A DNA stretch of 64,000 nucleotides from an uncultured Peptococcaceae bacterium (GTDB lineage Bacteria; Bacillota; Peptococcia; Peptococcales; Peptococcaceae), in contig CABQBF010000001.1 of NCBI GenBank assembly GCA_902462325.1, positions 11,478-75,477 on the forward strand, read 5' to 3'. Under the pieces are notes generated by a model, which was not told the DNA's origin, made no database searches, and was given only the letters and a program-made list of their open reading frames with translations. Position 1 is the stretch's first letter, and every line of letters begins with the position of its first letter. This document shows, piece by piece, positions 14,072 through 42,611 of this stretch. The position numbers and the translations under genes are program-made.

Positions 14072-15130
14072 ATGAAATTAAAAAGCAAAAAATTAGTTGC
14101 CGGTTTGTTACTAACCTCTTTTACTCTGGCTACAGCTCTGACTGGCTGTGGTGGCGGTGATACAAAGCAGGAAACCAATAATAATGCTGGCGATGGCGCT
14201 GAAACTATCACCTTTACAGTTGCAAACGTTATGTCAACGGGTAATAATGTAACCTTAGGCGTTGAAAAATTTGCTGAATTGGTAGAAGAAAAATCTGGTG
14301 GCACTATGAAAGTAGACGTTCACTCTGATGCTGAGCTGGGCAACGATGTTGACACCACACAGCAGGTACAGGCCGGTTCTATCGACATGGCAACTTGTTC
14401 TTCGGATAACTTTGGTGTATTTGACCCAGACGTTTTGGCTTTGTCTTTGCCATATATCGTAAACAAAGACCATATGGATGCTTTATATGATGCAATTGAT
14501 AATGGCGATTTGGGTAACTATTATAAAGAAAGAATGGCTGCACAGAACCTGCATCCGTTAATGTTCAATGAATATGGTTTCCGTTGCTTCCATTCTGCTT
14601 CCAAACCAATCACTTCTCCTGCTGACATGAAAGACATGAAGCTGCGTGCCACCAGCTCTCAGGTAGAATTGGCTGTTGCAGAAGCACTGGCAGCGCCTGC
14701 TCAGACTGTAGCGTGGGGCGAAACCTATACTGCTTTACAGCAGAAAACAGTTGATGGGGAATCCAATACCTTTGGTCTATTACATGCATCTAAACATGAC
14801 GAAGTATTGAAATATTCTGCTACTACTGAACACAACTATTCCATGCACATTTTGCTGATGGCTGAAGATAAATATCAGGCGCTGACTGATGAACAGAAAG
14901 CAATCCTGGACGAAGCAGCTGCTGAAGCTGTCGCTTATGAACGGGAACTGTCTGTACAGGCTGAACAGGATGCGAAAGACGCTTTCAAAGAAAATGGTGT
15001 AGAAATTGTAGAACTGACCGATGAACAGAAAGCCGAATGGGCTGCTGCTACTGCCAGTGTATATGACAAACTGGTTCCATCTGTAATTTCTCAGGAAGTT
15101 GTAGATATGATTAAAGCTACACAAGAATAA
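14072..15130 (+). CDS. TRAP transporter substrate-binding lipoprotein (DctP family)
   Basis: It has a lipobox (LTGC) and a DctP-like body. GGAGGG RBS 8 nt upstream. Confidence 0.8.
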   Translation: MKLKSKKLVAGLLLTSFTLATALTGCGGGDTKQETNNNAGDGAETITFTVANVMSTGNNVTLGVEKFAELVEEKSGGTMKVDVHSDAELGNDVDTTQQVQAGSIDMATCSSDNFGVFDPDVLALSLPYIVNKDHMDALYDAIDNGDLGNYYKERMAAQNLHPLMFNEYGFRCFHSASKPITSPADMKDMKLRATSSQVELAVAEALAAPAQTVAWGETYTALQQKTVDGESNTFGLLHASKHDEVLKYSATTEHNYSMHILLMAEDKYQALTDEQKAILDEAAAEAVAYERELSVQAEQDAKDAFKENGVEIVELTDEQKAEWAAATASVYDKLVPSVISQEVVDMIKATQE

Positions 15131-15300
15131 ATTCAAGTATTTTTAATTTAGAAGAAAAAGCAGAATTGTAGCGAAAAGTGGGCTCTGAAAGGTAGTTGCA
15201 ATTCTGCTTTCTTCATGAGTAGATATGTTAAAAATTTGTTAACAAGATAAACAAAACATAAAATGACGAAGAAAATAACATATTGTAAGAGGTGATTGTT

Positions 15301-17184
15301 ATGACAGAAGCGATTGTAAACAATAAAGAAAAAAAGCAAAGCCCTCTGCGTTGGTTGGATGAAAATTTTGAAAGCATATTCCTGGTAATTGGGATGCTGG
15401 CCATTATTTTTCTGATTACCTGGCAGGTATTATATCGCTATATTTTTACCAAATTTACCTCTGGCGCCAGCACCATGGTAGCAGCAGCACCAGAGGAAAT
15501 TGCCCGTTATATTTTTGTATGGATATCCTATTTGGCTGTGCCAGTTGCAATTAAAAAACGGGATTTGATTCGTGTAGATATTTTGTATGATAAATTGCCC
15601 AAACGGATACAGAACATGAGCTGGGTAATTGTAGATGCGGCTATGCTGATTTGGGCTGGTGTAATCACTTACGAAGGAATTATACATATTCAAAAGCTGA
15701 TGACGTTTGTATCCAGCACGCCAGTGTTAAAAATTCCTTTTTGGGCCCTATATCTGGTATTACCTGTTGCTTTCGGGCTATGTATTTTAAGAACCCTGCA
15801 GGATGTATTTGCGCAGGTAAAGCAATGCGGTTTGGTGGATAGTATAATTGCTGTTGTGATTGGTGCGGTGCTGTGTCTGCCCATACTTCTGCAAATCAAA
15901 TTGCCAACGATTGCCTTATTGTTTGGCTACTTTGTGATTTTGCTGGCATTAGGTGTGCCAATCTCCATGTCTTTGGGGATATCGTCCATTTTTACCATTT
16001 GGGTTAATCATCCCATAGATATATCCTATGTGGCGCAGTTATCCTTTGCCTCCATTGATAAAACAGCAATTATGTGTATTCCATTCTTCGTAGCCTCTGG
16101 CGATTTAATGGGAATTGGCGGACTTTCCCGCAGATTGTTCTCTATGGCCGATGAATTTTTAGGCTCTGCCTATGGCGGCTTGGCATTAGCTACGGTTGCC
16201 ACCTGTGTCTTGTTTGGCGCTATGAGTGGTTCCGGTCCTGCTACAGTAGCGGCTATTGGCGCTTTATGCGTGCCAGCTATGGTGGAACGGGGCTATGACC
16301 GGAAATTCTCAGCCGCTATCGTAGCTTGTGCTGGCGCCATTGGCGTATTAATTCCGCCTAGCAATCCCTTTGTTGTATATGCAATTTCAGCCAACGTATC
16401 GGTAGGGAAACTGTTTATGGCCGGTATTGTGCCGGGCTTGCTGGTTGCAGCCGTATTGATGGCCTACAGCTATTTCCTGGCTAAAAAAGAAGGCTGGCGT
16501 GGGGAAGATCGTCCGCGTAATGTCAAAACTAAGCTGCATGCGGTTTGGGAATCCAAATGGGCGTTGATGGTACCGGTTATTATTTTAGGAGGTATTTACG
16601 GCGGTTTTATGACGCCAACCGAAGCGGCAGCAGTGGCAGCTTTCTATGGTTTGATAGTAGGTTTGTTTATTCACCGTGAAATTACCGTTAAAAATTTGCT
16701 GCCTGCTATGGTAGGCTCTGCAGCTACATCATCTATGATTATCGTGCTGATGGCAATGGCGCAGATTTTCGGCAGTATCATGTCTATTGAACGGATTCCG
16801 ACCATGGTTGCAAACTTTATCCTGAGCCTGACAACCAGCAAAATCCTGGTGCTGCTGATGATTAATATATTGCTGCTTATTGTTGGTACTTTTATGGAAG
16901 CGCTGGCCGCCATTATTATTTTGGTACCGCTGTTATTACCGATTGTAACGCAGTTAGGTGTAAACCCAATTCATTTTGGCGTTGTGATGGTATTGAACTT
17001 GGCAATTGGATTTATTACACCGCCGGTTGGTGTAAACCTATTTGTGGCCAGTGGGATATCTAAGCTTAAGCTGGCTGACATTGCAAAAGCGGCCATGCCA
17101 ATGTTGGGGTTGATGATTGTCGTGTTGCTGGTTGTTACGTATTTCCCGCCGTTATCTTTGGCGTTAACCAATATTGTAAAATAA
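15301..17184 (+). CDS. TRAP transporter fused small/large permease (DctQ-DctM fusion)
   Basis: An N-terminal 4-TM DctQ-like part precedes a DctM-like 12-TM part (GLPISMSLG, PPSNPFVVY). The ATG lies 6 nt after AGAGGTG. Confidence 0.85.
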   Translation: MTEAIVNNKEKKQSPLRWLDENFESIFLVIGMLAIIFLITWQVLYRYIFTKFTSGASTMVAAAPEEIARYIFVWISYLAVPVAIKKRDLIRVDILYDKLPKRIQNMSWVIVDAAMLIWAGVITYEGIIHIQKLMTFVSSTPVLKIPFWALYLVLPVAFGLCILRTLQDVFAQVKQCGLVDSIIAVVIGAVLCLPILLQIKLPTIALLFGYFVILLALGVPISMSLGISSIFTIWVNHPIDISYVAQLSFASIDKTAIMCIPFFVASGDLMGIGGLSRRLFSMADEFLGSAYGGLALATVATCVLFGAMSGSGPATVAAIGALCVPAMVERGYDRKFSAAIVACAGAIGVLIPPSNPFVVYAISANVSVGKLFMAGIVPGLLVAAVLMAYSYFLAKKEGWRGEDRPRNVKTKLHAVWESKWALMVPVIILGGIYGGFMTPTEAAAVAAFYGLIVGLFIHREITVKNLLPAMVGSAATSSMIIVLMAMAQIFGSIMSIERIPTMVANFILSLTTSKILVLLMINILLLIVGTFMEALAAIIILVPLLLPIVTQLGVNPIHFGVVMVLNLAIGFITPPVGVNLFVASGISKLKLADIAKAAMPMLGLMIVVLLVVTYFPPLSLALTNIVK

Positions 17185-23704: not shown

Positions 23705-24424
23705 TCACCGTATAATCAGGATAAAGCCGTAAATCAGCATGATGGCGTACACGATATTTTTCAGCCGCTGGGGATTCATGTGGTTCAGCAGTTTGTTGCC
23801 CAGATAAATGCCCGGCGGGATGGCTAGCAGGCCAATGGCCGAGTAGTGGACGGCGGCCGGTGTAACCAGGCCGTTCATGTAACGGATGGCCAACAGGAAG
23901 ATTTCGGTAACGGCAAACCAAGCCTGCACGCTGGCGGTATAGCGGCGCACGTCGTTGCTGACGGTGAGCAGATACAGCACGATTGGAGGCCCACCGACAC
24001 AGAACAGGCTCTCCAGGGTGCCGCTTAAAGCGCCGGCAATAAAGCCGTTGCGTTTGGTGGGCTGGATGCGGATTTTTTTCTGAAAGAAGATAAAATACAG
24101 GCTCAGCAAAATCAGCACAACGCCCAGCACTTTTTTGATAGAGCCGTCCTCCACTGTACTCAGCAGCCGCACAGCGAAGCAACTGGCGATAAAATAGCTG
24201 ATGAAGGTTGGCACAATCCACTTCCACACGATTTCCTTATGCATACGGATGGCATTGATGGCGGTAAAGGCCAGTGTGAGCACCGTCACGCATACTGTGG
24301 CGCAGGAATAGGTAGGCATCAGCAATGGAAACACCATAATGGTGATGATGCCAAAGCCAAAGCTGGTGGAGGTGTGAATGGCGGTGGCGATAAAGGTGAC
24401 CAGTAAAAGAATGGCAATGGACAT
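23705..24424 (-). CDS. TauE/SafE (TSUP, DUF81) family anion/sulfite exporter
   Basis: 239 aa and 7-8 TM, with the duplicated TSUP pattern (GFGFGIITI...; GALSGTLESLFCVGGPPIVLY). Confidence 0.75.
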   Translation of the reverse strand: MSIAILLLVTFIATAIHTSTSFGFGIITIMVFPLLMPTYSCATVCVTVLTLAFTAINAIRMHKEIVWKWIVPTFISYFIASCFAVRLLSTVEDGSIKKVLGVVLILLSLYFIFFQKKIRIQPTKRNGFIAGALSGTLESLFCVGGPPIVLYLLTVSNDVRRYTASVQAWFAVTEIFLLAIRYMNGLVTPAAVHYSAIGLLAIPPGIYLGNKLLNHMNPQRLKNIVYAIMLIYGFILIIR

Positions 24425-24622
24425 GACAAGCAGACTCCCTTGGGAAAAAATTGATTGATGGATGCACTCTTGTATCTAAAAGAAAGAAGTGCTATACTAA
24501 AATACATACGACGATTTTAATTTATACTAATATTCTATGAATTCGCTGAAAGAACGGCGCCTGCTGTTTTGGCCGGTGCATTTACCTGTATTGCTCAGCT
24601 TTCAGAAAAGGAGGAACACGTT

Positions 24623-25525
24623 ATGCGCATCGATCAGCTAGCCGCATTGGTGGAGGTTGCCAAATCCGGCTCGATTAATTCTGCGTCTAAAAAACTGCAT
24701 GTTACACAGCAAAGCCTAAACAAATCACTGAAAAGTCTGGAAAATGAAATGAATTGTCATTTGCTGGACCGCACCAAGAAAGGAATTCGTCTGACTGCTG
24801 ACGGTGAGAAGGTGCTCAGCGCCGCCCAGGATATTATCAGCCGCTTAAATAAGCTGGAACGGGAATTAAATTTAAAACAGCATGCCGATACTTCGCTGCA
24901 CGGCAATTTGAATGTCAACTTGTCGCCTATGTTGAATATCTCGGTTCTTCCTGTGGCGTTTAAGGATTTTATATCCCATTATCCAGAAGTGAATTTATTT
25001 ACGGCAGAACGCTATCGGGATCAGATTTTGGAACGATGCTTAACCCATCAGGAGTTGGGCTTGTTGTGCGTATCGCCGCTGATTACTGAATTTTTTGACA
25101 ATATTCCCGACGAGATTGAGCTAATTCCTATGAAGCAGTACCCGATTTATGTAGCTGTCTCGGCTGGACATCCGCTGGCGGACCATAAATCGCTTTCGGT
25201 TAGCACGGTGGCCCATTATCCCTTTGTGGTGTATGAGATTGGCGGCACCGGCGGCGTTCATGCTTTTCAAAAGCTGGGACATACCAAGGTGGCTTTATCC
25301 ACCAATAACTACAAGCTGTGCGAAGAAATTCTGCGCAATGACACAGCCATTATGTACAGTTTTCCACCCTATCTGGAGCGCAATGTGTTCCCGACGCTTG
25401 TGCATATCCCCATTAAGGATAAGCAGGCGACCTTTACTATTTATGCTGCGCTGAATAAAAAGATGGATAAAAATCAGTTGTCGTTGGCGCGGGCGTTTAT
25501 TCATGTATTTAACGAGTATCTATAA
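24623..25525 (+). CDS. LysR family transcriptional regulator (divergent from tauE-like, directly upstream of the BMC operon)
   Basis: MRIDQLAALVEVAKSGSINSASKKLHVTQQSLNKSLKSLE is a LysR HTH. AAGGAGG RBS upstream. The ORF-track start at 24569 is rejected. Confidence 0.85.
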   Translation: MRIDQLAALVEVAKSGSINSASKKLHVTQQSLNKSLKSLENEMNCHLLDRTKKGIRLTADGEKVLSAAQDIISRLNKLERELNLKQHADTSLHGNLNVNLSPMLNISVLPVAFKDFISHYPEVNLFTAERYRDQILERCLTHQELGLLCVSPLITEFFDNIPDEIELIPMKQYPIYVAVSAGHPLADHKSLSVSTVAHYPFVVYEIGGTGGVHAFQKLGHTKVALSTNNYKLCEEILRNDTAIMYSFPPYLERNVFPTLVHIPIKDKQATFTIYAALNKKMDKNQLSLARAFIHVFNEYL

Positions 25526-26072: not shown

Positions 26073-26417
26073 ATGGAAGAAAAGCAGCGTATTATTCAAG
26101 AGTATGTGCCTGGCAAGCAGGTGACTTTGGCGCACATCATTCCCAGTCCGGTGCCTTCGCTTTATATGAAGCTGGGCTTGGTAGATGCGGAGGGGGCAAT
26201 CGGCATCTTTACCATTACGCCGACGGAAGCGGCGATGATTGCCGCCGATGTGGCTTCTAAGGCTGCTGATGTTGATTTGGGTTTGGTAGACCGGTTTAAC
26301 GGCAGTTTGGTGATTACCGGTGACGTGGCTGCTGTGGAGGCTGCCATGCAGGAAGTGTTGCACGTACTTTGCGGGCAGATGGGCTTTACCGCCGCTGCAG
26401 AGCTGACCAGAAGCTGA
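26073..26417 (+). CDS. BMC shell protein, circularly permuted BMC-H (EutS/PduU type)
   Basis: It carries the EutS/PduU signature N-terminus ([18 protein letters not shown]) and a permuted BMC domain. Confidence 0.85.
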
Positions 26418-26427
26418 GGTGGCAGGC

Positions 26428-26904
26428 ATGGCAAAAAAAGAAGGCCCCAAACGGGCTATCCTCATAGGTCGCTCAACGGCTGGTAAGACAACCATGTGCC
26501 AGTATATTTCCCAGGAGGAACTGCAGTATCACAAAACGCAGACGGTGCAGGTCATTGACGAAAGGTTAATCGACACGCCCGGTGAGTATTTGGAGAGCAG
26601 ACGGTTTCGCGGCTCACTGACAACGACGGCTGCCGACGCCGATATTATCGTGCTGGTGCAAGACGCTACCGAAAACGGCACCATGTTTTGGCCGGCCTAT
26701 TCTTCTATGTTCGCTAAGCCGGCGATCGGTGTGGTGACCAAAAGCGATATTGCCACGGAAAAGCAGATTGACACAGCGAAAAAGTATTTGACCATGGCCG
26801 GTGCTCAAAAATTATTTGTGACCAGCAGCGTGGCAGGCACAGGCTTTGATGAATTTCTGGAATATCTGGACTATCCTCGGCGGGAGCAAAGCACAGAAGC
26901 GTAA
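26428..26904 (+). CDS. EutP/PduV family microcompartment-associated GTPase
   Basis: Walker A (GRSTAGKTT), IDTPGEY and VVTKSD fit the EutP/PduV pattern. Confidence 0.8.
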   Translation: MAKKEGPKRAILIGRSTAGKTTMCQYISQEELQYHKTQTVQVIDERLIDTPGEYLESRRFRGSLTTTAADADIIVLVQDATENGTMFWPAYSSMFAKPAIGVVTKSDIATEKQIDTAKKYLTMAGAQKLFVTSSVAGTGFDEFLEYLDYPRREQSTEA

Positions 26905-27095
26905 ATTGGTTTATGGCTGCCCATTCCGGCTGATCGGTCTGTCCCGGCAGACAGTCGGGCGGTATGTGGCGGATATAAGATATCAGATAAAAAGATGCAG
27001 GAGGTGGTCGCCCCAATCGTACAATGGACTGCATGGTGAAATTGGACATGATAGAAACAAAATAAGAAATTTTGAATGTCCGATGGAGGTGAAAT

Positions 27096-27704
27096 ATGAA
27101 AGCATTAGGTTTAATTGAGCTCTTAGGATATTGTCCTGCAGTGGTAGCGCTGGATACTGCGTTGAAAACAGCCGATGTATCGTTCCAGCAAATCAGTAAA
27201 ATTGATAAAGGCATTGTTTCTTTAACAGTGACTGGCGATGTAGCGGCGGTACAAGCAGCTATGGACGCGGCAAAAGCGGCAGCGGAACAGGTTGGGCAGG
27301 TATTATATGTACATGTCATTCCCCGTCCCCATGAGGAAGTGGATGCCATGTTGAATCCGCCACCGGCAGCACCGCAGGCGCCAACGCCACAGCCGCCGTC
27401 TGCTCCTGATGCGCCTTCCGGCGATGGGGCAGAAGCAGTGGAAGAAGTGGAGGCTGCAGCGCAGGACAGCGCGGAGGAGGATGAGGAAGAGCCCTCGGCT
27501 CAGGAAGCGGCAGAGCCATCAAGTGATGTAAAGGCTTTGCTGGAAACTCTGACTCCGGAAGTGTTGGAGGGTATGACCGTGAAGGAATTACGCACGGTTG
27601 CCCGTGAATTGAATATCACCAACATGACGCGGAAGGAAATCAGATTTGGCAAAAAAGAAGACTTAGTGTCCTCTATTTGTAAATATTTAGAACAGGAGTG
27701 TTGA
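27096..27704 (+). CDS. BMC-H shell protein with a long Pro/Ala/Glu-rich linker and a C-terminal Rho_N/SAP-like helix-extended-helix domain
   Basis: Residues 1-90 form a canonical BMC domain (ALGLIELLGY...VIPRPHEEV). A low-complexity acidic linker of about 65 aa follows, then MTVKELRTVARELNITNMTRKEIRFGKKEDLVSSICKYL. Confidence 0.8.
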   Translation: MKALGLIELLGYCPAVVALDTALKTADVSFQQISKIDKGIVSLTVTGDVAAVQAAMDAAKAAAEQVGQVLYVHVIPRPHEEVDAMLNPPPAAPQAPTPQPPSAPDAPSGDGAEAVEEVEAAAQDSAEEDEEEPSAQEAAEPSSDVKALLETLTPEVLEGMTVKELRTVARELNITNMTRKEIRFGKKEDLVSSICKYLEQEC

Positions 27705-27707
27705 TTT

Positions 27708-29255
27708 ATGCAACTTTTTGACAAAGACCTTTTGTCTGTACAGGAAGTGCGCGACTTAGTAAGTGCAGCAAAAGAAGCACAGGCAGAACTGGCTGAAAAA
27801 TCCCAGGAAGACGTGGATCGCATTGTGAAATCCATCGCTGACGCCGGTGTGCGCAACGCAGCTCGTCTGGCTGTAATGGCTAACGAAGATACCGGTTTTG
27901 GTATCGTAGCTGATAAAGTAGTGAAAAACGTATTTGGTAGCTACAATGTTTACAACGCTATCAAAGATATGAAAACCATTGGTGTAATTGACAGAAACGA
28001 TGAAAAGGGTCTGATTACCATTGCAGTACCTCTGGGCGTTGTAGCTGGGATTGTTCCATCTACCAACCCAACTTCTACCGTTTTCTTCAAATCAGAAATT
28101 GCTATCAAATCCGGGAACTCGATTGTATTCTCTCCACATCCATCTGCACTGCGCTGCATCCAGGAAGCTGTTAAAGTAATCCGTCAAGCGATTGCAGAAG
28201 TTGGCGGCAACGAAAATCTGGTTTCCTGCATCAGCATTCCAACCAGACAGGCTACCGAAACTCTGATGAGACATCCAGACACCGCTATGATTTTAGCAAC
28301 TGGCGGTTCTGCAATGGTTCATGCAGCTTATTCCTCCGGGAACCCTGCAATCGGCGTAGGTCCTGGTAATGGTCCAGCCTTCATTGATAAGAGCGCAGAC
28401 CTGGCTCTGGCTGTAAAACGGATTATGGACTCCAAAACTTTCGACAACGGTACCATTTGCGCTTCCGAACAGTCCATCATCTGCGAAGAAGATTACAAAC
28501 CGGCTGTTCAGGCTGAAATGGAAAAACAGGGCGCTTACTTCCTGAGCGATGAAGAAAGTGCCAAACTGGGCAAATTCATTCTGCGTGCTAACGGCACCAT
28601 GAACCCACAGATTGTTGGGAAGAGTGTACAGACCATCGCTGGCTTGGCTGGCTTAGAAGTTCCTGCCGGCGCTCGCGTACTGGTTGCAAAAGAAGATGGC
28701 GTTGGCCGTGGTCATCCATACTCCAACGAAAAACTGGCTCCAATCTTAGGCTTCTACACAGGCAAAGACTACAAAGATGTTTGCGATAAAGTCTGCATGA
28801 TTTTGAGCTATGAAGGGAAAGGTCATACCTTCTCCATGCATACCAACAACCAGGAAATGGTTGAATATTTTGCAAAACGGGTACCAGTATCCCGTATCTG
28901 CGTAAACACCCCAAGTACACTGGGCGGTATCGGCGCAAGCACTGCATTGATGCCATCCTTGACACTGGGCTGCGGCGCAATCGGCGGTTCTGCTACTTCT
29001 GAAAACGTAGGTCCAATGCAGTTATTAAATCTGCGCTATGTTGCCATCGGCGCTCTGGAAATTGAAGACATTCGCGCTACTCTGCCAGATTGCTCCAGCG
29101 GCGTATGCGTTATGAGAAACAACAATGCTGCTGCTCCTGCAGCCGCTCCAACACTGGGCGCTGCTGCTCCAGCTTCCACTGCCAGCGCATCTTTGAATGA
29201 TAGCCAGATGGATGAACTGGTTCGCAAAATTATTGAACGTTTACAGAATGCGTAA
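27708..29255 (+). CDS. CoA-acylating aldehyde dehydrogenase (EutE/PduP family) with a C-terminal encapsulation-peptide-like helix
   Basis: [21 protein letters not shown] and [10 protein letters not shown] are the ALDH acylating motifs. The C-terminus is an Ala/Pro linker followed by [17 protein letters not shown]. Confidence 0.9.
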
Positions 29256-30352: not shown

Positions 30353-31141
30353 TTGAAGGTACTTACAGAAGCAAAGGTGAGAGCGGAGGTGCCGCGCAGT
30401 GCGCAGCCCGAGGTTTACTATGTGGAGCCGGGGTATATCCTCTCGCCGGCAGCTCGTGAATATCTGATGGGACGTCAAATCAAAATTTCTAACGGACCAA
30501 AGCCCGGTGAAGAGCCGGAAGCCGTCATCGCTGCAGATGAGGTTCCCCCTATGCCTGCTGCAGCGCCTCAGACGAAGGCTGACTGTGCCAAATATGTGGA
30601 TTACACCACAGGCGCCTGCTATTTTGAAAAACCGGTGCATATGACTGTTTTATACGGCGATGTGCTGGTGGCCAAGGATCATCCGCAGATTTTATTCCGC
30701 GGTAAGGTGGAGAGCCTGCAAGCGCAGATTATTCTCTATCAGGCCATGATTGCAGAGCAAAACGGCAGCCAGAAGCTGATTGATGATTTAAATAATATTT
30801 TAACGATTTTACGAAATATCCTGCGGAGTCATGTATTAAATCAGCCGCTGGAAGTGGAAAGCATTATCGGGCTGAGCCCTGTGGAATTAGAAGAACGGGT
30901 CAAAGAGCCAATGCGGTACTTCCGGCTTGAGCAGGCCGGTATCCCCGATTATACCCGGGGAATCCAATATGCCCGGCTGAATCAACTGTATACACAGACG
31001 CGGGAAGTAGAAGTGGCAGCCATTACAGCGCTCCACGAAGGAAACCAATATACCAGAAGCGATATTCTGGAAACCTTAAACTGGTTGTCCAGCGCGTTTC
31101 GGGTAATGATGTTTATGCAGTTGGCAGGTGAATATAAATGA
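30353..31141 (+). CDS. EutT/PduO-family (Cob_adeno_trans-like) cobalamin adenosyltransferase homologue
   Basis: The N-terminus (LTEAKVRAEV....ILSPAAREYLMGRQIKI) and VAKDHPQILFRGKVESLQAQII resemble EutT as I remember it. TTG start after GGGGGTG. Confidence 0.5.
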   Translation: MKVLTEAKVRAEVPRSAQPEVYYVEPGYILSPAAREYLMGRQIKISNGPKPGEEPEAVIAADEVPPMPAAAPQTKADCAKYVDYTTGACYFEKPVHMTVLYGDVLVAKDHPQILFRGKVESLQAQIILYQAMIAEQNGSQKLIDDLNNILTILRNILRSHVLNQPLEVESIIGLSPVELEERVKEPMRYFRLEQAGIPDYTRGIQYARLNQLYTQTREVEVAAITALHEGNQYTRSDILETLNWLSSAFRVMMFMQLAGEYK

Positions 31142-31764
31142 GCGAAACAAGCATGATTGATCAGGTCGTCAATGCGGTTGTAGATACAATCAACAGAGAA
31201 TATGTGCAGGTTGAAGTTTCTGCACGGCACGTACATTTGAGTCAGGCTGATTTGGAAGTATTATTTGGGCCAGGCGCAACATTAACACCAAAACGTGAAT
31301 TGTCGCAGCCGGGTCAGTTTCTTTCTGAACAGCGCGTAACACTGGTGGGGCCAAAGGGCAGAAAAGAAAATGTTTCTGTTTTAGGGCCTGTGCGGAAAGC
31401 CACCCAGGTTGAATTATCCAAGAGTGATGCCAGAGGTTTAGGGGTGAAGGCTCCATTGCGGGAATCGGGCGATGTAGCTGGCTCCGGTTCTATCACATTG
31501 GAAGGGCCGAAAGGCAGCGTAACAATTCCGGAAGGCGTCATTGTGGCTCACTGCCACATTCATATGACAACTGCCGATGCCCGCAGAATGGGCTTGACCG
31601 ATAATCAGCACGTCAGTGTAGAAATCGGCGGCGAACGTCCGCTGGTGTTCAAAGATGTGATTGTTCGTGTCAGCGATAAATTCCGCTGCCGAATGCACAT
31701 TGACACCGATGAAGGCAATGCAACCAGCTTAGGAAAACTGACCTTAGGCAGAATTATTAAATAA
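31138..31764 (+). CDS. pduL: phosphate propanoyl/acetyl-transferase PduL
   Basis: It has the two PduL repeats (VEVSARHVHLSQADLEVLFG; IVAHCHIHMTTADARRMG). The N-terminal helix IDQVVNAVVDTI looks like an encapsulation peptide. Confidence 0.9.
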   Translation: MSETSMIDQVVNAVVDTINREYVQVEVSARHVHLSQADLEVLFGPGATLTPKRELSQPGQFLSEQRVTLVGPKGRKENVSVLGPVRKATQVELSKSDARGLGVKAPLRESGDVAGSGSITLEGPKGSVTIPEGVIVAHCHIHMTTADARRMGLTDNQHVSVEIGGERPLVFKDVIVRVSDKFRCRMHIDTDEGNATSLGKLTLGRIIK

Positions 31765-31789
31765 AATTCCAGCGAAGGAGTTTTTCAGC

Positions 31790-32623
31790 ATGATGGATTT
31801 ACAACGGGTAAATGCCTATATGGAACGGGTGGAGCAGTCGGAGAAGCAAACCTTCAAGCCGGTCGGCGAGAAGCTGAAGGTCGGTTTGGATTTGGGGACG
31901 GCTTACATTGTTCTGGTTGTATTGGATGAAGAAGATAACCCCATCGCTTGCGAAAAGCAGGCGGCCAGTGTTTTGAAAGATGGCGTTGTGGTAGATTATG
32001 TGGGTGCTCTGCAAATTGTGAGAGCCTTGAAAGAAAAGCTGGAAGAACGGCTAGGCACCCAATTACAGTATTGTGCCATTGCCATGCCGGCTGGCACAGA
32101 AGACAGCATCAAAACCCATCAATATATTGCAGAAGGCGCAGGCTTTGAAGTAACCAATATTTTGGATGAGCCATCGGCAGCCAATGCTATCTATCAGATT
32201 GAAGACGGTGTTGTGGTTGATATCGGCGGCGGTACGACGGGGCTGGCGATTTTAAAAAACGGCATAGTCACCCAGATTGAAGATGAGCCTACCGGCGGTA
32301 CCCATGTATCGCTGGTGCTGGCGGGAAATTATAAAATTCCCTTCGACGAGGCAGAACAGATTAAGCAGGACTATAAGCGCCACAAAGAAATCTTTCCTGT
32401 GGTGAAACCTGTACTGGAAAAAATGGCTACCATCGTCAATCGCTACGTGAAAAAAGGTGATGTGGATACCATCTATCTTTGCGGTGGTACCTGCTGCTTG
32501 ACCGGCATTGAGACCGTTTTTGAAAAAATAACCGGCATTCATACCGTAAAACCGGCCAATCCGTTTTTGGTAACACCGGCTGGCATTGCGATGAATTGCA
32601 AGCTGGATGGGACAGTTGTATAA
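31790..32623 (+). CDS. eutJ: EutJ-like actin/Hsp70-fold chaperone
   Basis: VGLDLGTAYIVLVV, VVDIGGGTTGLAI and IYLCGGTC are ASKHA phosphate motifs in an EutJ-sized protein. Confidence 0.85.
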   Translation: MMDLQRVNAYMERVEQSEKQTFKPVGEKLKVGLDLGTAYIVLVVLDEEDNPIACEKQAASVLKDGVVVDYVGALQIVRALKEKLEERLGTQLQYCAIAMPAGTEDSIKTHQYIAEGAGFEVTNILDEPSAANAIYQIEDGVVVDIGGGTTGLAILKNGIVTQIEDEPTGGTHVSLVLAGNYKIPFDEAEQIKQDYKRHKEIFPVVKPVLEKMATIVNRYVKKGDVDTIYLCGGTCCLTGIETVFEKITGIHTVKPANPFLVTPAGIAMNCKLDGTVV

Positions 32624-33452
32624 AAGGTTGTTTAATAAGAAAGAAGGGGATTCCTTGGACTTCGATGCGTTGGTAGACGAACTTGCAAATCGTGTGCGTG
32701 CAGCGCTGGCCGTGCAGGAAGCTGCAGAACAGCTGGTTTCGGCTTGCAGCACCACCGGCTTCTGCACTGCAGATGCACCAGAGTCGCAGAAACCAATCTT
32801 GATTGGTCTGACTCAGGATAGTCCACTGCCACCTTGCCGCTTTACTCTGCTGGAAAGTGCCAGAGTAAAAGAGAAATACCGCATTCAATGTGCGCAGAAA
32901 TGCAACTATGATGTGGATATTGCCAGCTGCGAAGCCGTGGTACTCCATGATTTGACCAATGAATCGCTGGCCAAAATTGCCAGCGGCATCTGTGACACCC
33001 CTTACACCAAGCTAGTGTCGCAGGCATTGTTAATGGGAAAGACAGTTTATCTGCTGCAGGATCAGATTGAATTATACAACTACCGGCAGACTGCCGCTAA
33101 GGTGTATTATAAGATGTTCCGCGGCCAGCTCGGTATGCTGGAACAGTCCGGTCTGGTGATTTGCTGCCCGGATAAAATTGAAGAGATTCTTGTGCAGGCC
33201 GCTGGCGGTGGTGCAGCTACTTGCCAAACCACCTGCGTAAAGGATGCAGATAAAAAAGAAGCAGAACAGGCGACAGAACCTAAGGCTGCTGACAAAACCG
33301 TGAAGCTGGAAAATCATTTAATCAGCGAACGGAGCGTTGCCGAAGCTTGCCAGTCTGGAGCAAGCCGGATTGTTGTCGGTGCAAAAGCCATTGTAACTGA
33401 TTTAGCCAAGGAATATGCGCAGAACCGGAATGTAGAGCTGGTTCGGGAATAA
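32607..33452 (+). CDS. BMC-associated protein of unknown function (flavoprotein-fold-like core, EutQ/EutT-N-terminal-like C-terminal module)
   Basis: It has an N-terminal amphipathic helix (LDFDALVDELANRVRAAL) and a core with LTNESLAKIASGICDTPYTKLVSQALLMGKTVYLL (PF02441-like by memory). The C-terminus is ISERSVAEACQSGASRIVVGAKAIVTDLAKEYAQNRNVELV. The start is uncertain (ATG 32607 or TTG 32655). Confidence 0.4.
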   Translation: MGQLYKRLFNKKEGDSLDFDALVDELANRVRAALAVQEAAEQLVSACSTTGFCTADAPESQKPILIGLTQDSPLPPCRFTLLESARVKEKYRIQCAQKCNYDVDIASCEAVVLHDLTNESLAKIASGICDTPYTKLVSQALLMGKTVYLLQDQIELYNYRQTAAKVYYKMFRGQLGMLEQSGLVICCPDKIEEILVQAAGGGAATCQTTCVKDADKKEAEQATEPKAADKTVKLENHLISERSVAEACQSGASRIVVGAKAIVTDLAKEYAQNRNVELVRE

Positions 33453-33477: not shown

Positions 33478-33762
33478 GTGCAGATTGCAAAAGTAATCGG
33501 CAATATCTGGGCAACCAGAAAGGAATCAACACTGACCGGTATGAAGCTGCTGATTGTACAGCCTATCAACATTTTAGATGGCGATAAGCCGTGCAGCGAG
33601 CCCATTGTGGCAGCCGATATGATTGGCGCCGGCATGGGCGAGACGGTTATTATTGTAACCGGCAGCACCGCCCGGGTGGCTACAGGCTCGGCAGAAGCGT
33701 CGGTAGACGCCACTGTCATCGGCATTGTAGACGACAAAGAGTTTGATGCCAATTTAATTTAA
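33478..33762 (+). CDS. BMC-P pentameric vertex protein (EutN/PduN/CcmL family)
   Basis: MQIAKVIGNIWATRK...LLIVQP...VAADMIGAG.GE.VIIVTGS is the EutN/CcmL pattern. GTG start after GAGGAGG. Confidence 0.9.
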   Translation: MQIAKVIGNIWATRKESTLTGMKLLIVQPINILDGDKPCSEPIVAADMIGAGMGETVIIVTGSTARVATGSAEASVDATVIGIVDDKEFDANLI

Positions 33763-33806
33763 ATAGTAGGAAAGTCCCATAGATTTTCTTTAGAAAAGTG
33801 TGGTGT

Positions 33807-35162
33807 ATGACCTTGAGTTTTATTGATACAGTAAAAGATGCAGGTATCGTAGGGGCCGGCGGCGCCGGTTTTCCAACGCACGTGAAGCTGAATGCGAAAG
33901 CCGAATACTTTATCGTAAACGCAGCGGAATGTGAACCACTGATTGAAACAGATAAATATCTGTGCCGTACCTTTGCTGATCAGATCGTAGAAGCAGTGCT
34001 GGCTACCGCCGCTCATATCGGCGCAAGCCGCAAAGTCATCGCACTCAAAGGCAAATACAAAGAAGAAATCGCTTCTTTGCAGGCTGCTATTGACCGTGCG
34101 CATGCCGACATCGAAATTTTTCAGATGCCAACCTTCTACCCTGCCGGCGATGAACAGACCATGGTACAGATGGTTACTGGCAGAAGCGTACCAGAACGCG
34201 GTCTTCCGCTAGACGTAGGCGCTGTGGTAGACAACGTTGGTACCATGCTCAATCTGTATGAAGCGCTGCATGGCGCACCTGTTACAGAAAAATATCTGTC
34301 TGTAGTAGGGGAAGTAAAAGAACCGATTATGCTGAAAGTGCCAATTGGTACTCCAGTAACCGAATGTATCGCGGCTGCACAGCCGACCATCAGCGACTAT
34401 GCCATCATTTTAGGCGGCCCGATGATGGGTAAAATCCCTGCCGATGACCAAGCCATCCAGGCAGCAGTTGTTACAAAAACCACCGGTAATATTATCGTAT
34501 TGCCAAAAGACCATTATCTGTTCCAGCGGGCCAGTCTGCCGCTGGCAACCATTAAACGGCAGGCTCGCGCAGCCTGCATCCAGTGTAAAATGTGTACCGA
34601 TTTGTGCCCTCGCTACATGATTGGGCATCAAATCCGTCCAAACCTGGTAATGCGCAATATCTGGAGAGAAGACCAGATTACCGATAACGATGAGTACCTG
34701 GCAAATTTTGGCGATGCCATGAACTGCTGCGACTGCGGCATTTGTGAAATGTTCGCTTGCCCGATGGGGCTGTCGCCACGGAAAGTCAACAGCTATGTGA
34801 AAGGTCAGTTGCGTGCCAAAGGCATTCAGGTTCCTCGCAATATGGAACCAGTTGCTCGGGACGCTATTGACAACCGTCGCGTTCCAACTCACCGGCTCAT
34901 TGCCCGTCTGGACTTGGCTGAGTTTGACGGTCTGCACGCCCATACCTGCATAGAATTGAAACCGGAAACGGTATATATTCCATTTAGTCAGCATATTGGC
35001 AAACCGGCTGTTGCCGCTAAAAAAGTGGGCGACCGCGTTGTAAAAGGCGAAGTGCTGGCTGCTGCGGCAGAAGGATTATCCACCAATATTCACGCCAGCA
35101 TGGACGGCGTAATTGTTGCCATTGATGAAAAAGGCGCTCGTATAAGCGGAAAGGAGGTATAA
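33807..35162 (+). CDS. PduS-like (RnfC/NuoF-type) Fe-S flavoprotein
   Basis: GAGGAGFPTHVK, NAAECEPL, and two ferredoxin-type clusters (CIQCKMCTDLCP; CCDCGICEMFACP). Confidence 0.85.
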   Translation: MTLSFIDTVKDAGIVGAGGAGFPTHVKLNAKAEYFIVNAAECEPLIETDKYLCRTFADQIVEAVLATAAHIGASRKVIALKGKYKEEIASLQAAIDRAHADIEIFQMPTFYPAGDEQTMVQMVTGRSVPERGLPLDVGAVVDNVGTMLNLYEALHGAPVTEKYLSVVGEVKEPIMLKVPIGTPVTECIAAAQPTISDYAIILGGPMMGKIPADDQAIQAAVVTKTTGNIIVLPKDHYLFQRASLPLATIKRQARAACIQCKMCTDLCPRYMIGHQIRPNLVMRNIWREDQITDNDEYLANFGDAMNCCDCGICEMFACPMGLSPRKVNSYVKGQLRAKGIQVPRNMEPVARDAIDNRRVPTHRLIARLDLAEFDGLHAHTCIELKPETVYIPFSQHIGKPAVAAKKVGDRVVKGEVLAAAAEGLSTNIHASMDGVIVAIDEKGARISGKEV

Positions 35163-35166
35163 TGCT

Positions 35167-35706
35167 ATGGGAAATGCATTAGGCATGATTGAATTGTCCA
35201 GTATTGCCCGAGGCATCGAAACCTGCGATTACATGGTGAAAGCTGCTCAGGTAGATCTGGTACGCGCTTCCACAGTTTGTCCAGGTAAATACATCATCAT
35301 TATCGGCGGTGATACTGCTGATGTAAGAGCCTCCATGACAGAAGGATCTAAAATTGGGGGGCCCTATGTAGTGGATACATTGTTAATCCCCAATATTAAC
35401 GAACAGGTAATTCCAGCCATCTCCATGACCAATCAGGTGACCGACCGTGACGCCATTGGGATTTTGGAATTCTACTCCATCGCCTCTGCTATCACGGCTG
35501 CCGATGTGGCTGCCAAAGCTGCCGATGTTACCTTAATTGAAGTGAGAATTGGGTATGCCATCGGCGGAAAAGGCTTTGTAACCTTAACCGGCGATGTAGG
35601 AGCGGTTCGCGCTGCAGTTGCTGCGGCTAAAGAAAACGCTGAATTACTGGTGAATACAAGTATCGTACCAAGACCAGCAAATCAGTTGTTTGACGCATTG
35701 TTATAA
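35167..35706 (+). CDS. BMC-T tandem-domain shell protein, PduT-like (candidate pore 4Fe-4S site)
   Basis: Two BMC domains in 179 aa. The TVCPGKY motif lies at the position of the PduT cluster-ligand Cys. Confidence 0.85.
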   Translation: MGNALGMIELSSIARGIETCDYMVKAAQVDLVRASTVCPGKYIIIIGGDTADVRASMTEGSKIGGPYVVDTLLIPNINEQVIPAISMTNQVTDRDAIGILEFYSIASAITAADVAAKAADVTLIEVRIGYAIGGKGFVTLTGDVGAVRAAVAAAKENAELLVNTSIVPRPANQLFDALL

Positions 35707-35750
35707 TCCAAGAAGATACAGTTAAAATCTTGTCTAAGGAGAGAGATAGA

Positions 35751-36707
35751 ATGGATTTATTGAAACTTCAGGAAGAACTGAGAGAAAAAGCTCTGCAGAG
35801 ATCCAGAGCAGAAAAAGCTGCTAACAAAGCCAAAGCACCGGCTGCTGGCGCTGTAAAGGGCCCAATCATCGACTTCCGTTATCGTCCAAACACCAAAAGC
35901 ATTATCGGCGGCATTGCAGAAAGCCCAATTTTCCGTGCCGGTCTGATTGCCAACGGTGTAGATATTGATGAATTCTACAGCAGAGCAAGAACCATGCCAG
36001 AAATCATCGCCGACCTGAAAGAACACAACGTAATTAAAGCTGTTATCGTTGGTCGTGACGCGGAAACCACCTATGGTTACAAACCAAACAATCCAGAAAT
36101 TCGTCAGTTCGTGCAGGCTTGCCCAGAAATCTTCCTGGGTTACTACGGTGTAGACCCACATAAAGGCATGCAGGCTATCCGTGATTTAGACGCTGCTGTA
36201 AAAAGCGGCGACTTCCACGGCGCTGCCATGGACCCAATGTATGCCCAGTTGAAATCCAGTGATGCCAAAATGTATCCAGTTTATGCAAAATGCTGCGAAC
36301 TGAACATTCCAATCGTTATCACTGCTGGTCCAGCTCGTTATACCGCTAATACCGTTATGGATTACACCCATCCAAGCGAAATTGATATCGTAGCAAAAGA
36401 CTTCCCAGATTTGAAAATCATCATCAGCCATGGTGCATGGCCATTTGTAGATGAAATGATTGGCGTTACCTTCCGTAACAGAAATGTATTCCTGGAAATC
36501 TCCGAATACGAAGAATATCCAGGCGCAAGCGACTTCCTGGATGCAGCAAAAACCATTCTGAAAGACCAGATGTTGTTCGCCAGCGCTTGCCCATTCGTGC
36601 CATATCTGGAAGCTGCAGAAAAATACACCACTTACGGCTTTGACGCAGAAACCTACGAAAAAGTTATGTGGAAAAACGCTGCAAGAGTATTGGGTATGGA
36701 AGTATAA
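35751..36707 (+). CDS. divergent amidohydrolase-2 (PF04909/COG2159-like TIM-barrel) protein with an N-terminal encapsulation-peptide-like extension
   Basis: The family-like blocks are IIDFRYRP, VIKAVIVG, GVDPHKG, NIPIVITAG, FPDLKIIISHGAWP, MLFASACPF and WKNAARVLG. The N-terminus is MDLLKLQEELREKALQRS followed by an Ala/Lys/Pro linker. The ATG lies 9 nt after AAGGAG; the ORF-track TTG at 35730 is rejected. Confidence 0.65.
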   Translation: MDLLKLQEELREKALQRSRAEKAANKAKAPAAGAVKGPIIDFRYRPNTKSIIGGIAESPIFRAGLIANGVDIDEFYSRARTMPEIIADLKEHNVIKAVIVGRDAETTYGYKPNNPEIRQFVQACPEIFLGYYGVDPHKGMQAIRDLDAAVKSGDFHGAAMDPMYAQLKSSDAKMYPVYAKCCELNIPIVITAGPARYTANTVMDYTHPSEIDIVAKDFPDLKIIISHGAWPFVDEMIGVTFRNRNVFLEISEYEEYPGASDFLDAAKTILKDQMLFASACPFVPYLEAAEKYTTYGFDAETYEKVMWKNAARVLGMEV

Positions 36708-36751
36708 TACGATCTGCAACCAAGAAACAATTAAATTTTACATTGCGAGCA

Positions 36752-36779
36752 AAAGGACTCCTGCGGGAGTCCTTTTTTG
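36752..36779 (+). terminator. strong rho-independent terminator ending the BMC operon
   Basis: AAAGGACTCC-TGCG-GGAGTCCTTT followed by TTTT. Confidence 0.8.
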
Positions 36780-36941
36780 TTTTGTGTTCCCGTAAAATAT
36801 CCCAATAAAATTTATAGATGTTTCAAAGAAATATTTATAAATTTGACGAAAAAGATAGCGAAAATCATGCACGGAAATTCCATTTTTATGGTATGCTTAT
36901 ATTGTATCATAGATATTTTTGGTATAAAATGGGGTGAAAAC

Positions 36942-37428: not shown

Positions 37429-37505
37429 CGACACACGTAAAGCTTGGCTTGTAAATCTGATTACGGAACCGCAAACAGATAAATGGCCGGGTTGACGTGT
37501 GTTTT
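37429..37505 (+). ncRNA. structured leader element: nested long hairpin followed by U5 (candidate attenuator, riboswitch domain or sRNA 3' end)
   Basis: ACACACGT (37430-37437) pairs with ACGTGTGT (37494-37501). The inner helices are CTTGGC/GCCGGG and ATCTG/CAGAT, followed by TTTTT. No known riboswitch class was recognised. Confidence 0.35.
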
Positions 37506-37532
37506 TACTGCGATTACTTTGTGTGGAAACGG

Positions 37533-37582
37533 GCGGCAGCCATTGGCCTTTCTTTACGGCCAGTGGGTGTCGTTTTCTTTTT
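37533..37582 (+). terminator. strong intrinsic terminator inside the 5' leader of the MFS-CBS gene
   Basis: CGGCAGCCATTGGCC / GGCCAGTGGGTGTCG forms a stem of about 14 bp, followed directly by TTTTCTTTTTT. It lies about 65 nt before the ATG at 37646. Confidence 0.65.
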
Positions 37583-37645
37583 TCTGACAAAAAGAAGGGA
37601 GCGTTTCTTTTGGAACAAAACAATTTTGCAGACAGTTCAATTCAG

Positions 37646-41602: not shown

Positions 41603-42565
41603 TTGGCCGTGTTATTGTCCCAATTAAATTATTTTCGTGTAGTGGCGCGTTACCAGCATATCAGCCGTGCCGCGGAGGCGTTGATGGTGGCGCAGCCGGC
41701 GCTTAGCGCTACCATCAGCAAGCTGGAAAAAGAATTAGGCGTGCCCTTGTTTAACCGGCAGGGCCGCAATATTGAATTGAATGAGGCTGGACGACGTCTG
41801 CTGGTGCATGCCGACTTTGTTTTTGAACAGTTAGAAGCTATGGAGCAATCGTTGGCGCAAACAAAAGAGATTTTAGAAAATGAGTTTACCTTATCGGTCA
41901 GCAATAGTATGTTTCTCAATGGCTGGCTGCAGCAATTTGTGCTGGACAATCCTAAAATTCGCTTGCGCCAGAAAATGCTCAGTGAAAATCAAATGTTGGA
42001 AGCTCTATTGGAAGAATCTATCGATGTGGCGTTGGGAGAGTTCGACCAGGATATACCAGGCATCGTGCGCAAAACGATTGTAGAAGACGAATATGTCATC
42101 ACCATTCCCAAAGGGCATCCGTTGGCGGAAAAGCAGGAAATTTTCTTTGCCGATATTCAAAATGAAAATATTGTGGCGTTGCCGTCCAACACCATTTTTA
42201 AAATTGCGGACCGCATGTTTGCCCAGCGGGAGTGTAAGCCCAATGTTGTATTTGAAGGAAATCAACGTATGATGACGAAAATGATGCACTTGAACAGGGG
42301 CATTTTATTCGCTTCCCGGCAGATGCTATATATGCCCTATTTATCGAAAGACCGTTTTTTTAATGAGTTGCCGTCCTATGAGGTGATTGTACGTTCCATT
42401 GCCGATTTGGAATGCCACTATCATTTGGCGCTGTGTTGGAAAGAGGAACGGGAACTGCCGATGATGGCGCGCAAATTTATCGACGCTATGGAGCAGAGTT
42501 ACCCCAAATATCAACAGGATGAAGACTATCTGCATGCCAGTGCGGTCTATTATCCCAGCCTGTGA
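41603..42565 (+). CDS. LysR family transcriptional regulator
   Basis: LSQLNYFRVVARYQHISRAAEALMVAQPALSATISKLEKELG is a LysR HTH. TTG start after GAGGAGG. Confidence 0.8.
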   Translation: MAVLLSQLNYFRVVARYQHISRAAEALMVAQPALSATISKLEKELGVPLFNRQGRNIELNEAGRRLLVHADFVFEQLEAMEQSLAQTKEILENEFTLSVSNSMFLNGWLQQFVLDNPKIRLRQKMLSENQMLEALLEESIDVALGEFDQDIPGIVRKTIVEDEYVITIPKGHPLAEKQEIFFADIQNENIVALPSNTIFKIADRMFAQRECKPNVVFEGNQRMMTKMMHLNRGILFASRQMLYMPYLSKDRFFNELPSYEVIVRSIADLECHYHLALCWKEERELPMMARKFIDAMEQSYPKYQQDEDYLHASAVYYPSL

Positions 42566-42611
42566 TTTGGCGTGGCAATGCGCAAATATGAGATGCGAGA
42601 GAGGAACAGCT

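Follow-up and report, generated by a model that had tools for sequence, protein, structure and literature searches.

The DNA analysed here is a 64,000-nucleotide stretch (the window) from an uncultured Peptococcaceae bacterium (contig CABQBF010000001.1). It carries a bacterial microcompartment (BMC) operon whose last gene, at 35751-36707 on the forward strand, encodes an Amidohydro_2-like protein that we named AH2. A preliminary description of the sequence had proposed AH2 as the encapsulated signature enzyme of this compartment. Our comparisons suggest instead that AH2 is probably an encapsulated accessory enzyme of an anaerobic pathway in which a glycyl radical enzyme (GRE) cleaves sulfonates, and not the enzyme that generates the aldehyde. 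The features of the gene are as follows:

35736..35741 (+), Shine-Dalgarno AAGGAG, read from the sequence, 9 nt 5' of the ATG at 35751
35751..36707 (+), AH2 gene, 318 aa, Amidohydro_2-like without metal ligands; open reading frame, PF04909 E=4e-26, PDB 3IRS E=1.5e-30, AlphaFold2 pLDDT 92.3
35751..35831 (+), residues 1-27, predicted N-terminal helix and candidate encapsulation peptide (MDLLKLQEELREKALQRSRAEKAANKA); modelled helix 3-27, pLDDT 65-82
35832..35864 (+), residues 28-38, Ala/Lys/Pro/Gly-rich linker KAPAAGAVKGP, non-helical in the model, varying in sequence and length within the clade
35865..36704 (+), residues 39-318, TIM barrel, placed by alignments, model secondary structure and profile alignments to PDB entries
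36751..36786 (+), intrinsic-terminator-like hairpin (36751-36776) and T-run at the operon end, read from the sequence

The open reading frame (ORF) is intact, with 318 codons. An in-frame TTG at 35730 lengthens the mechanically called ORF, but the ATG at 35751 is preferred as the start because all nine of the close homologues that bear the extension begin with MDL (MMDL in P0003). The genes of the operon are, in order, a LysR-type regulator, a 114-aa BMC-domain protein, PduV, a BMC-H protein with a Rho_N-like tail, an aldehyde dehydrogenase (AldDH), three BMC-H proteins, a PduO-like adenosyltransferase, a PduL-type phosphotransacylase (PTAC), EutJ, a 281-aa protein, BMC-P, PduS, a PduT-like BMC-T protein and AH2. 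The terminator-like hairpin begins 44 nt 3' of the AH2 stop codon, so AH2 is the last gene of the operon, as had been described. The sequence blocks quoted in the preliminary description were all found in the translation: IIDFRYRP (39-46), VIKAVIVG (93-100), GVDPHKG (133-139), IVITAG (188-193), FPDLKIIISHGAWP (218-231), FASACPF (276-282) and WKNAARVLG (307-315).

AH2 is a PF04909 barrel that lacks the usual metal ligands

The placement of AH2 in the PF04909 barrel family was confirmed by Pfam, by a structural model and by Foldseek. The Pfam match scored 92.8 bits against a cut-off of 26.4, although it covers only residue 117 onward, and AH2 matched no NCBIfam model. An AlphaFold2 model made with 94 homologues (pTM 0.87) has an N-terminal helix (residues 3-27), which a non-helical linker (28-38) joins to the barrel from residue 39 on. 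With Foldseek, the top match was 3IRS, followed by LigW, LigJ, LigY, ACMSD and gamma-resorcylate decarboxylases, and the top matches were all PF04909 structures. The canonical enzymes of the family (ACMSD, LigW, gamma-resorcylate decarboxylase, LigJ and LigY) depend on a metal held by an H-x-H motif, a His and an Asp or Glu. They resemble AH2 in fold, block structure and the strand-6 His (Foldseek E ~1e-10, TM ~0.6, 13-21% identity), but they are not linked to BMCs or GREs, and their metal ligands are all missing in AH2.

The ligand positions were mapped through HMMER alignments of AH2 and the family profile against solved PF04909 structures. On strand 5 the family's 'ipivittG' lies opposite 'ahihatG' of LigY, and the position of the His is taken by Thr191. 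On strand 8 'fasahPf' lies opposite 'aadyPy', 'stdwPf' and 'gsecPg', with Ala279 in place of the metal-binding Asp or Glu. On strand 6 'shG' lies opposite 'shG' or 'ghwG', and His227 is retained. HMMER left strand 1 unaligned to the canonical members, and this strand was mapped by position, pattern and identity with 3IRS; strand 1 of the model (residues 39-41) leads into D41-F-R43-Y-R45 at the place of the family's D-x-H-x-H. The canonical metal-ligand positions in AH2 are Arg43, Arg45, Thr191 and Ala279, and His227 alone is kept. This agrees with what had been read by eye from IIDFRYRP, IVITAG, FASACPF and ISHG. Ligands that are present but shifted had been named as a possible error in that reading; no His or Asp available as such a ligand was found on strands 1, 5 or 8, and the loss stands.

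The best match of AH2 in both sequence and fold was BB4693 of Bordetella bronchiseptica (PDB 3IRS/3K4W, an unpublished structural-genomics entry named 'uncharacterized TIM-barrel protein'), with E=1.5e-30 by sequence, 1e-45 by profile, TM 0.72/0.81 and ~28-30% identity. Like AH2, it has IIDFRxRP, no strand-5 His, SHG, and Ala at the position of the strand-8 Asp. Unlike AH2, it lacks D-P-H-K on strand 3 and S-E-x-E on strand 7, has Tyr at position 280 and carries no terminal extension. Its host is an aerobe, and no glycyl-radical pathway would be expected there. LigI, the 2-pyrone-4,6-dicarboxylate lactonase, is a TIM barrel of the amidohydrolase superfamily (subgroup COG3618) that is reported to work without a metal and thus a precedent for metal-free catalysis in this fold. 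LigI keeps His and Asp as acid-base and polarising groups, whereas AH2 has Arg, Arg, Thr and Ala instead.

The loss of the ligands had been taken to mean either non-metal chemistry or a non-catalytic role. The first is the option that we favour, and the second is unlikely. Thirty-nine positions are invariant across the 94 homologues, AH2 included, and the polar ones lie at strand ends (D41, R43, R45, R102, D103, D135, H137, K138, S226, H227, E252 and E254); D161 is nearly invariant (>=90%) among the homologues. The ratio of nonsynonymous to synonymous substitution (dN/dS) of AH2 was 0.01-0.06 in the clade whose operons lack a GRE. AH2 is under strong purifying selection, that clade included, and together with the invariant positions this argues for a catalytic function.

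A large clade without metal ligands and a narrower subfamily

The replacement of the ligands is not peculiar to AH2 or to BMC proteins, contrary to how it had been presented. When 1.84 billion proteins, each representing a cluster at 50% identity, were searched with a profile, 428 clusters matched at E<=1e-30 and 3157 at E<=1e-10. Among the best 150 of the 428 representatives, where aligned, R43 was present in 93/102, R45 in 93/102 and H227 in 140/146, and residue 279 was non-acidic as a rule. AH2 fits the pattern of this D-x-R-x-R clade, which has D41-x-R43-x-R45, His227, and Ala, Gly or Ser in place of the strand-8 Asp. Arg-x-Arg and Ala are near-universal among these 150 representatives, and 3IRS belongs to the clade as well. 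As judged by alignment, the metal-ligand-free motifs define a large existing clade of PF04909.

Within this wider clade, the subfamily of AH2 adds the invariant residues R102, D103, D135-P-H137-K138, S251-E252-x-E254 and S278. The motifs G-R-D (101-103), D-P-H-K (135-138), S-E-x-E (251-254) and A-S-A-x-P (277-281) are invariant in the 94 homologues including AH2, and in the model all of the subfamily-specific invariant residues are found where the predicted strands end C-terminally, on what is the catalytic side of a TIM barrel. At position 280, >=90% of the subfamily have His, AH2 and its clade have Cys, and P0009 has Ser. A second homologue search found 801 proteins (90%-identity clusters) at E<=1e-30, from Desulfobacterota, Peptococcaceae, Negativicutes and Eggerthellaceae. 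Domain fusions were also considered as a clue to function and dropped: P0211 (436 aa) is an internal duplication and probably an assembly artefact, and the tail of P0374 matches nothing assignable.

The AH2 subfamily accompanies sulfonate-cleaving GREs

Relatives of AH2 were collected by scanning one genome per GTDB species, which gave 449 loci; the best 80 were examined, and their neighbouring genes were labelled by phmmer against reference proteins. A GRE gene was found <=10 kb from AH2 in 50 of the 80 species-level loci and near AH2 in 17/17 of the loci with full flanks and no shell genes. In the non-BMC loci, AH2 commonly lies directly 3' of the GRE activase gene, sometimes with a 4-bp overlap. 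The best PDB matches of these GREs were IseG (5YMR), IslA (7KQ3) and HpsG (6LON), at >1000 bits. Residues R187, C466, E468 and R676 (IseG numbering), which are the sulfonate-anchoring and catalytic residues of such GREs (PMC13450708, a 2026 review), are kept in at least 44 of the 45 GREs near AH2. IseG or IslA with its activase is enough for sulfonate cleavage in vitro. By gene neighbourhood, the AH2 subfamily is a conserved companion of GREs of the IseG/IslA/HpsG clade and of their activases: it occurs near them at most of the related loci, both with and without a BMC. The claim that AH2 is the signature enzyme was not supported by these data, since in the relatives an IseG/IslA-type GRE is the apparent source of the aldehyde and AH2 in many loci follows the activase even where there is no BMC. 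The GRE pockets beside AH2 vary at other positions, so AH2 occurs with several GRE subtypes, suggesting that it is not tied to one GRE substrate.

The closest outgroup, L001, has an AH2 that is 75% identical and bears the same N-terminal extension. Its operon reads LysR-GRE-activase-AldDH-shell-PTAC-BMC-P-PduS-BMC-T-AH2-TauE, and its AldDH, BMC-T, PduS and AH2 share 75-79% identity with the window proteins. The GRE of L001 is 84-87% identical to GREs of Eggerthellaceae/Actinomycetes (L022-L027, L031), where the AH2s are 53-57% identical. Because these identities disagree, AH2 seems to travel with the BMC chassis (the shell and core enzymes) and not with the GRE module. The disagreement suggests a recent horizontal transfer of the GRE module alone, and from these comparisons the module appears to be exchangeable, or absent as in the window.

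Two further loci carry an AH2 without a tag. In L049 (6072-11735), on a contig of the same metagenome-assembled genome (MAG) as the window-like contig L008, a second AH2 copy that bears no tag is flanked by a sulfonate-clade GRE and a beta-hydroxyacid dehydrogenase; a CitMHS-type transporter is found upstream and no activase is adjacent. This GRE has Asn for Gln at the sulfonate-binding position 191 and may have a different sulfonate specificity. In L050 (Desulfitobacterium sp. Sab5, 20.8 kb), three GREs surround one tag-less AH2, which retains a short, remnant-like C-terminal tail. Two of these GREs belong to the sulfonate clade; the third has diverged further and is 44% identical to the GRE of L001.

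The window operon resembles a GRMguf locus without its GRE

A PF04909 protein was listed as a component of the GRMguf type of BMC by Sutter et al. (2021), whose library of encapsulation peptide (EP) profile hidden Markov models has the entry HMM04909amidhy_1_grmguf (32 positions, 8 sequences). The GRMguf type and the isethionate BMC of Bilophila are now regarded as the same (PMC13450708). The final gene of that cluster was reported as a 'hypothetical protein, predicted amidohydrolase', with nothing further (Burrichter et al. 2021). AH2 is probably the same kind of protein as this one (HMPREF0179_00649 of Bilophila wadsworthia), an orthology taken from the annotation in those papers; the Bilophila protein was not among the proteins listed by our second homologue search. 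The GRMguf component belongs to the same Pfam family as AH2, has a terminal EP-like extension and has no function assigned. The two also share partners, namely AldDH, PduL-type PTAC, PduS, PduT-like BMC-T, BMC-P and an adenosyltransferase-like gene.

The window operon has the shell set, AldDH, PTAC, PduS, PduT-like BMC-T and PF04909 protein of a GRMguf locus. It differs from the known GRE-containing microcompartment (GRM) loci in that it has neither GRE nor activase and in that its AH2 has Cys280 for His280. No GRE, activase or remnant of either was detected in the 64-kb window by tblastn, and no other candidate signature enzyme was seen there. Judged by gene content, the operon is the BMC chassis of a sulfonate-GRE system without the GRE and activase genes. 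This version is conserved in 11 species-level gut MAGs (L008-L018). Loci of Desulfocapsaceae, with the order AH2-AldDH-shell-PTAC-PduS-PduT and a tripartite ATP-independent periplasmic (TRAP) transporter, also have no GRE within 10 kb. An EP-bearing PF04909 protein at GRMguf loci was already known (Sutter 2021); what is new is the N-terminal tag, the His280Cys change and the conservation, in gut Peptococcaceae, of an operon version that lacks the GRE.

Two other comparisons were discarded. The MUF locus type ('complete core, no signature enzyme'; Axen 2014) was dropped, since the relatives have the same chassis with a GRE and Sutter 2021 places PF04909 in GRMguf. The 'metalloBSH' amidohydrolases of Bilophila were ruled out as they are secreted and metal-dependent. 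The remaining features of the operon and its surroundings are listed here:

14072..17184 (+), TRAP transporter, DctP and fused DctQM, possible sulfonate importer, 9 kb upstream of the operon
23705..24424 (-), TauE/SafE family exporter (sulfite or sulfonate), divergent from LysR, by Pfam
24569..25525 (+), LysR-type regulator upstream of the BMC operon, by Pfam; LysR genes also occur at related loci
26073..27704 (+), 114-aa BMC-domain protein, PduV/EutP GTPase and BMC-H with Rho_N-like tail, by Pfam
27708..29255 (+), AldDH with C-terminal EP, 79% identical to the AldDH of the GRE-containing operon L001
29332..30311 (+), three genes for BMC-H shell proteins
30353..33452 (+), PduO-like adenosyltransferase, PduL-type PTAC with N-terminal EP, EutJ-like protein and 281-aa protein
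33478..35706 (+), BMC-P (EutN), PduS-like flavo-FeS protein and PduT-like tandem BMC-T

The TRAP transporter of the window is related to the TRAP systems at other AH2 loci, many of which have a GRE (DctQM 56-68%, DctP 44-49% identity). A TauE gene was found at 17/80 AH2 loci and, in L001, lies 3' of AH2.

Several neighbouring genes have unusual features. The 114-aa protein (26073-26417 (+)) matches the BMC domain in part (profile positions 1-61 of 75) and may be a permuted or PduU/EutS-like shell protein. The BMC-H protein at 27096-27704 (+) has a ~110-residue C-terminal tail ending in a Rho_N/SAP-like motif, which is odd for a hexamer shell protein. The 281-aa protein (32607-33452 (+)) has an EP-like N-terminus (DSLDFDALVDELANRVRAALA), and its sole family match is to Flavoprotein, below threshold; its position is kept in the operons of the window clade, with a weaker match in L042. 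Outside the operon, an arylsulfotransferase-like gene followed by a Na+/sulfate-symporter/CitMHS-type transporter (2069-5289 (+)) indicates more metabolism of sulfur compounds nearby. An MFS transporter fused to a CBS domain is encoded at 37499-39466 (+); its last ~90 residues look out-of-frame, perhaps owing to a frameshift or an error in sequencing close to the 3' end. Two tandem ORFs of LysR-family regulators (41603-43493 (+)) overlap by ~45 nt as called.

Terminal extensions follow the presence of shell genes

An extension made of a helix and a linker, at the N- or C-terminus of AH2, was found in 30/30 of the full-flank loci with shell genes and in 1/17 of the shell-free ones (Fisher p ~2e-10, not corrected for phylogeny). 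The single shell-free locus with a tagged AH2, L060 from a Desulfovibrionaceae MAG, has a C-terminal tag on a long Ala/Ser linker and no shell gene <=10 kb; its shell genes may be encoded elsewhere. The comparison bears out the preliminary view of the N-terminus of AH2 as an encapsulation tag that marks it as cargo. From this distribution, AH2 is almost certainly BMC cargo, and its N-terminal extension is presumed to be a shell-targeting peptide.

In a neighbour-joining (NJ) tree, the N-terminal type of the window is restricted to the window clade and nested among extension-less proteins. A second, unrelated N-terminal type occurs in P0023, whose contig is too short for shell genes to appear on it, a separate small C-terminal group (P0018/P0024) adjoins a BMC-H gene (L090), and there is a large C-terminal clade with apparent losses. 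By this tree, extensions were gained independently on either terminus in several lineages. The catalogued GRMguf EP consensus (…MDaqeiQsIIEnVIaq…) fits the C-terminal tags of Firmicutes homologues and is unrelated to the N-terminal tag of AH2. Tags occur at both termini within the window operon as well: the AldDH has a C-terminal EP after an Ala/Pro-rich linker and the PTAC (31138-31764 (+)) an N-terminal one (MSETSMIDQVVNAVVDTINRE).

The preliminary description had also called the N-terminus of AH2 an amphipathic helix followed by an Ala/Lys/Pro-rich linker. The linker and the helix agree with the model, but support for the amphipathic character is weak. Residues 1-18 had an Eisenberg hydrophobic moment of 0.22, no higher than shuffles (p=0.59), in a test low in power, since EP sequences of other proteins also scored unevenly in it. 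On a helical wheel Leu3, 6 and 10 and Ala14 form a stripe, the helix is highly charged, and L3, L4, L10, R11 and E12 are conserved within the window clade. The C-terminal tags EKLIIENVLKELAKRG, MQDLVSEIVREVMVRL and ESRLVEQVLRRLAQEN were amphipathic at the best window lengths (p=0.002-0.014) and less so at other lengths.

Proposed role of AH2

As an accessory enzyme of the sulfonate pathway, AH2 would act on what the GRE releases. A role on the product side is favored because AH2 occurs with diverse GRE pockets, follows the chassis and not the GRE, and is packed with the AldDH. The barrel would catalyse without the family's usual metal site. Arg43 and Arg45, at the place of H-x-H, would bind the anionic sulfonate or sulfite group, and His227, Lys138, His137 and the strand-end Asp and Glu residues would carry out acid-base chemistry. 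GREs themselves anchor the sulfonate with two Arg residues (PMC13450708), which is offered as an analogy only.

The most likely specific reaction, which we put forward tentatively, is the cleavage of a carbonyl-bisulfite adduct (1-hydroxyalkanesulfonate). Aldehydes and bisulfite associate tightly. The GRE releases aldehyde and bisulfite in equal amounts, an adduct forms spontaneously, and the association would be strongest inside a closed shell. AH2 would split the adduct, passing the aldehyde to the co-encapsulated CoA-acylating AldDH and the sulfite to export or respiration. A second candidate, which we consider unlikely, is the beta-elimination of sulfite from a sulfo-aldehyde or sulfo-acyl-CoA, for example 3-sulfopropionaldehyde or its CoA ester. 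This candidate is relevant since Bilophila respires 3-sulfopropionate by no known pathway. A more far-reaching possibility is that AH2 is a metal-free and radical-free sulfite-releasing lyase, acting by either of these two reactions, that alone feeds the GRE-less microcompartment, with acyl-phosphate and sulfite as products. This would be a new activity for the superfamily and is doubtful.

Several observations weigh against an accessory role in a GRE pathway. The window has no GRE or activase, so a role downstream of a GRE requires that the GRE be supplied in trans. The sole evidence for such a supply is the GRE and AH2 paralogue of L049 in the same MAG as L008, where the L008 contig is 3 kb and the binning weak. 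More generally, in 13/30 of the shell-containing loci with full flanks no GRE was found within 10 kb. AH2 has Cys in place of the His280 that typifies the GRE-linked subfamily, and its Arg pair recurs in a far larger clade that is not known to be connected with sulfonates. Since the adduct dissociates spontaneously, there is no strict need for an enzyme. Also, no mention of the function or missing metal site of the AH2 family was found in the literature on BB4693, on HpfG, or on amidohydrolases in connection with isethionate, GREs or microcompartments.

Alternative explanations

The alternative that survives best is that AH2 is itself the signature enzyme of a GRE-less BMC, making an aldehyde, and probably also sulfite, out of a substrate brought into the cell, by a chemistry that needs neither a radical nor a metal; a candidate substrate is an aldehyde-bisulfite adduct or other activated sulfonate taken up by the TRAP system. 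The lack of a GRE, activase or other candidate signature enzyme in the operon and the 64 kb around it fits this explanation, as do the retention of the GRE-less operon in the 11 gut MAGs, the strong purifying selection on AH2 and the Desulfocapsaceae loci with AH2, shell and TRAP genes. Among the top 120 homologues of the Desulfopila GRE, none lay on a contig with the length of the D. flagellatus chromosome. In Sutter 2021, the main locus of the MIC3 BMC type has just two components, an AldDH and an amidohydrolase of PF04909 in which no EP was detectable. However, the absence of a GRE within 10 kb is not the absence of a GRE from the genome, and a GRE of the same clade occurs in the MAG of L008. 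L001, with the same N-terminal tag on its AH2, has both GRE and activase in its operon. The subfamily is otherwise linked to GREs, even in non-BMC loci, where the GRE alone explains the aldehyde. We therefore regard AH2 as signature enzyme as improbable.

Another possible explanation is that AH2 acts upstream of the GRE as a hydrolase, hydratase or decarboxylase, turning an imported precursor into the sulfonate substrate; such a precursor could be an N-acyl derivative, an ester, a lactone, a sultone or a hydrate. Its membership in the PF04909 fold, the 'amidohydrolase' of the family name and automated annotations, and the recurrence of TRAP transporters and LysR regulators at the same loci are in keeping with this. 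However, the characterized hydrolases, hydratases and decarboxylases of PF04909 need the metal site that AH2 lacks, LigI being a metal-free exception, and both the co-encapsulation with AldDH and the movement of AH2 with the chassis fit the product side better. Organisms known for growth on free isethionate or taurine have no need of such a step (Peck 2019; Xing 2019). An upstream step thus seems quite improbable.

Lastly, AH2 could be a non-catalytic adaptor that binds the GRE or other cargo and brings it into the shell by its own tag, given that the canonical metal site is gone, that AH2, AldDH and PTAC are all tagged, and that the GREs in BMC loci are not extended at either terminus relative to those in non-BMC loci. 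This is very unlikely, since a tag-less AH2 is equally conserved in the 17/17 full-flank shell-free GRE loci, where an adaptor for encapsulation would serve no purpose. The polar invariant residues lie on the catalytic side of the barrel, there is no GRE in the window operon that could be recruited, and the discordant phylogenies of AH2 and GRE speak against a tightly co-evolving complex.

Significance

Sulfonate-cleaving GREs (IslA/IseG, HpsG) link taurine, isethionate and sulfonates derived from sulfoquinovose to hydrogen sulfide in the gut. The AH2-type PF04909 protein is among the most constant genomic companions of these GREs in gut and sediment anaerobes, and this very common family marks a real and testable gap in anaerobic sulfonate metabolism. 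Its function would complete the pathway model of a disease-relevant metabolism, might explain the respiration of 3-sulfopropionate and would show the purpose of the GRE-less version of the BMC. If AH2 were a sulfite-releasing lyase that alone feeds GRE-less compartments, this would be an unrecognised route to hydrogen sulfide in the gut. The family is also a clean natural experiment for BMC biology, as tags have been gained on either terminus where shells are present.

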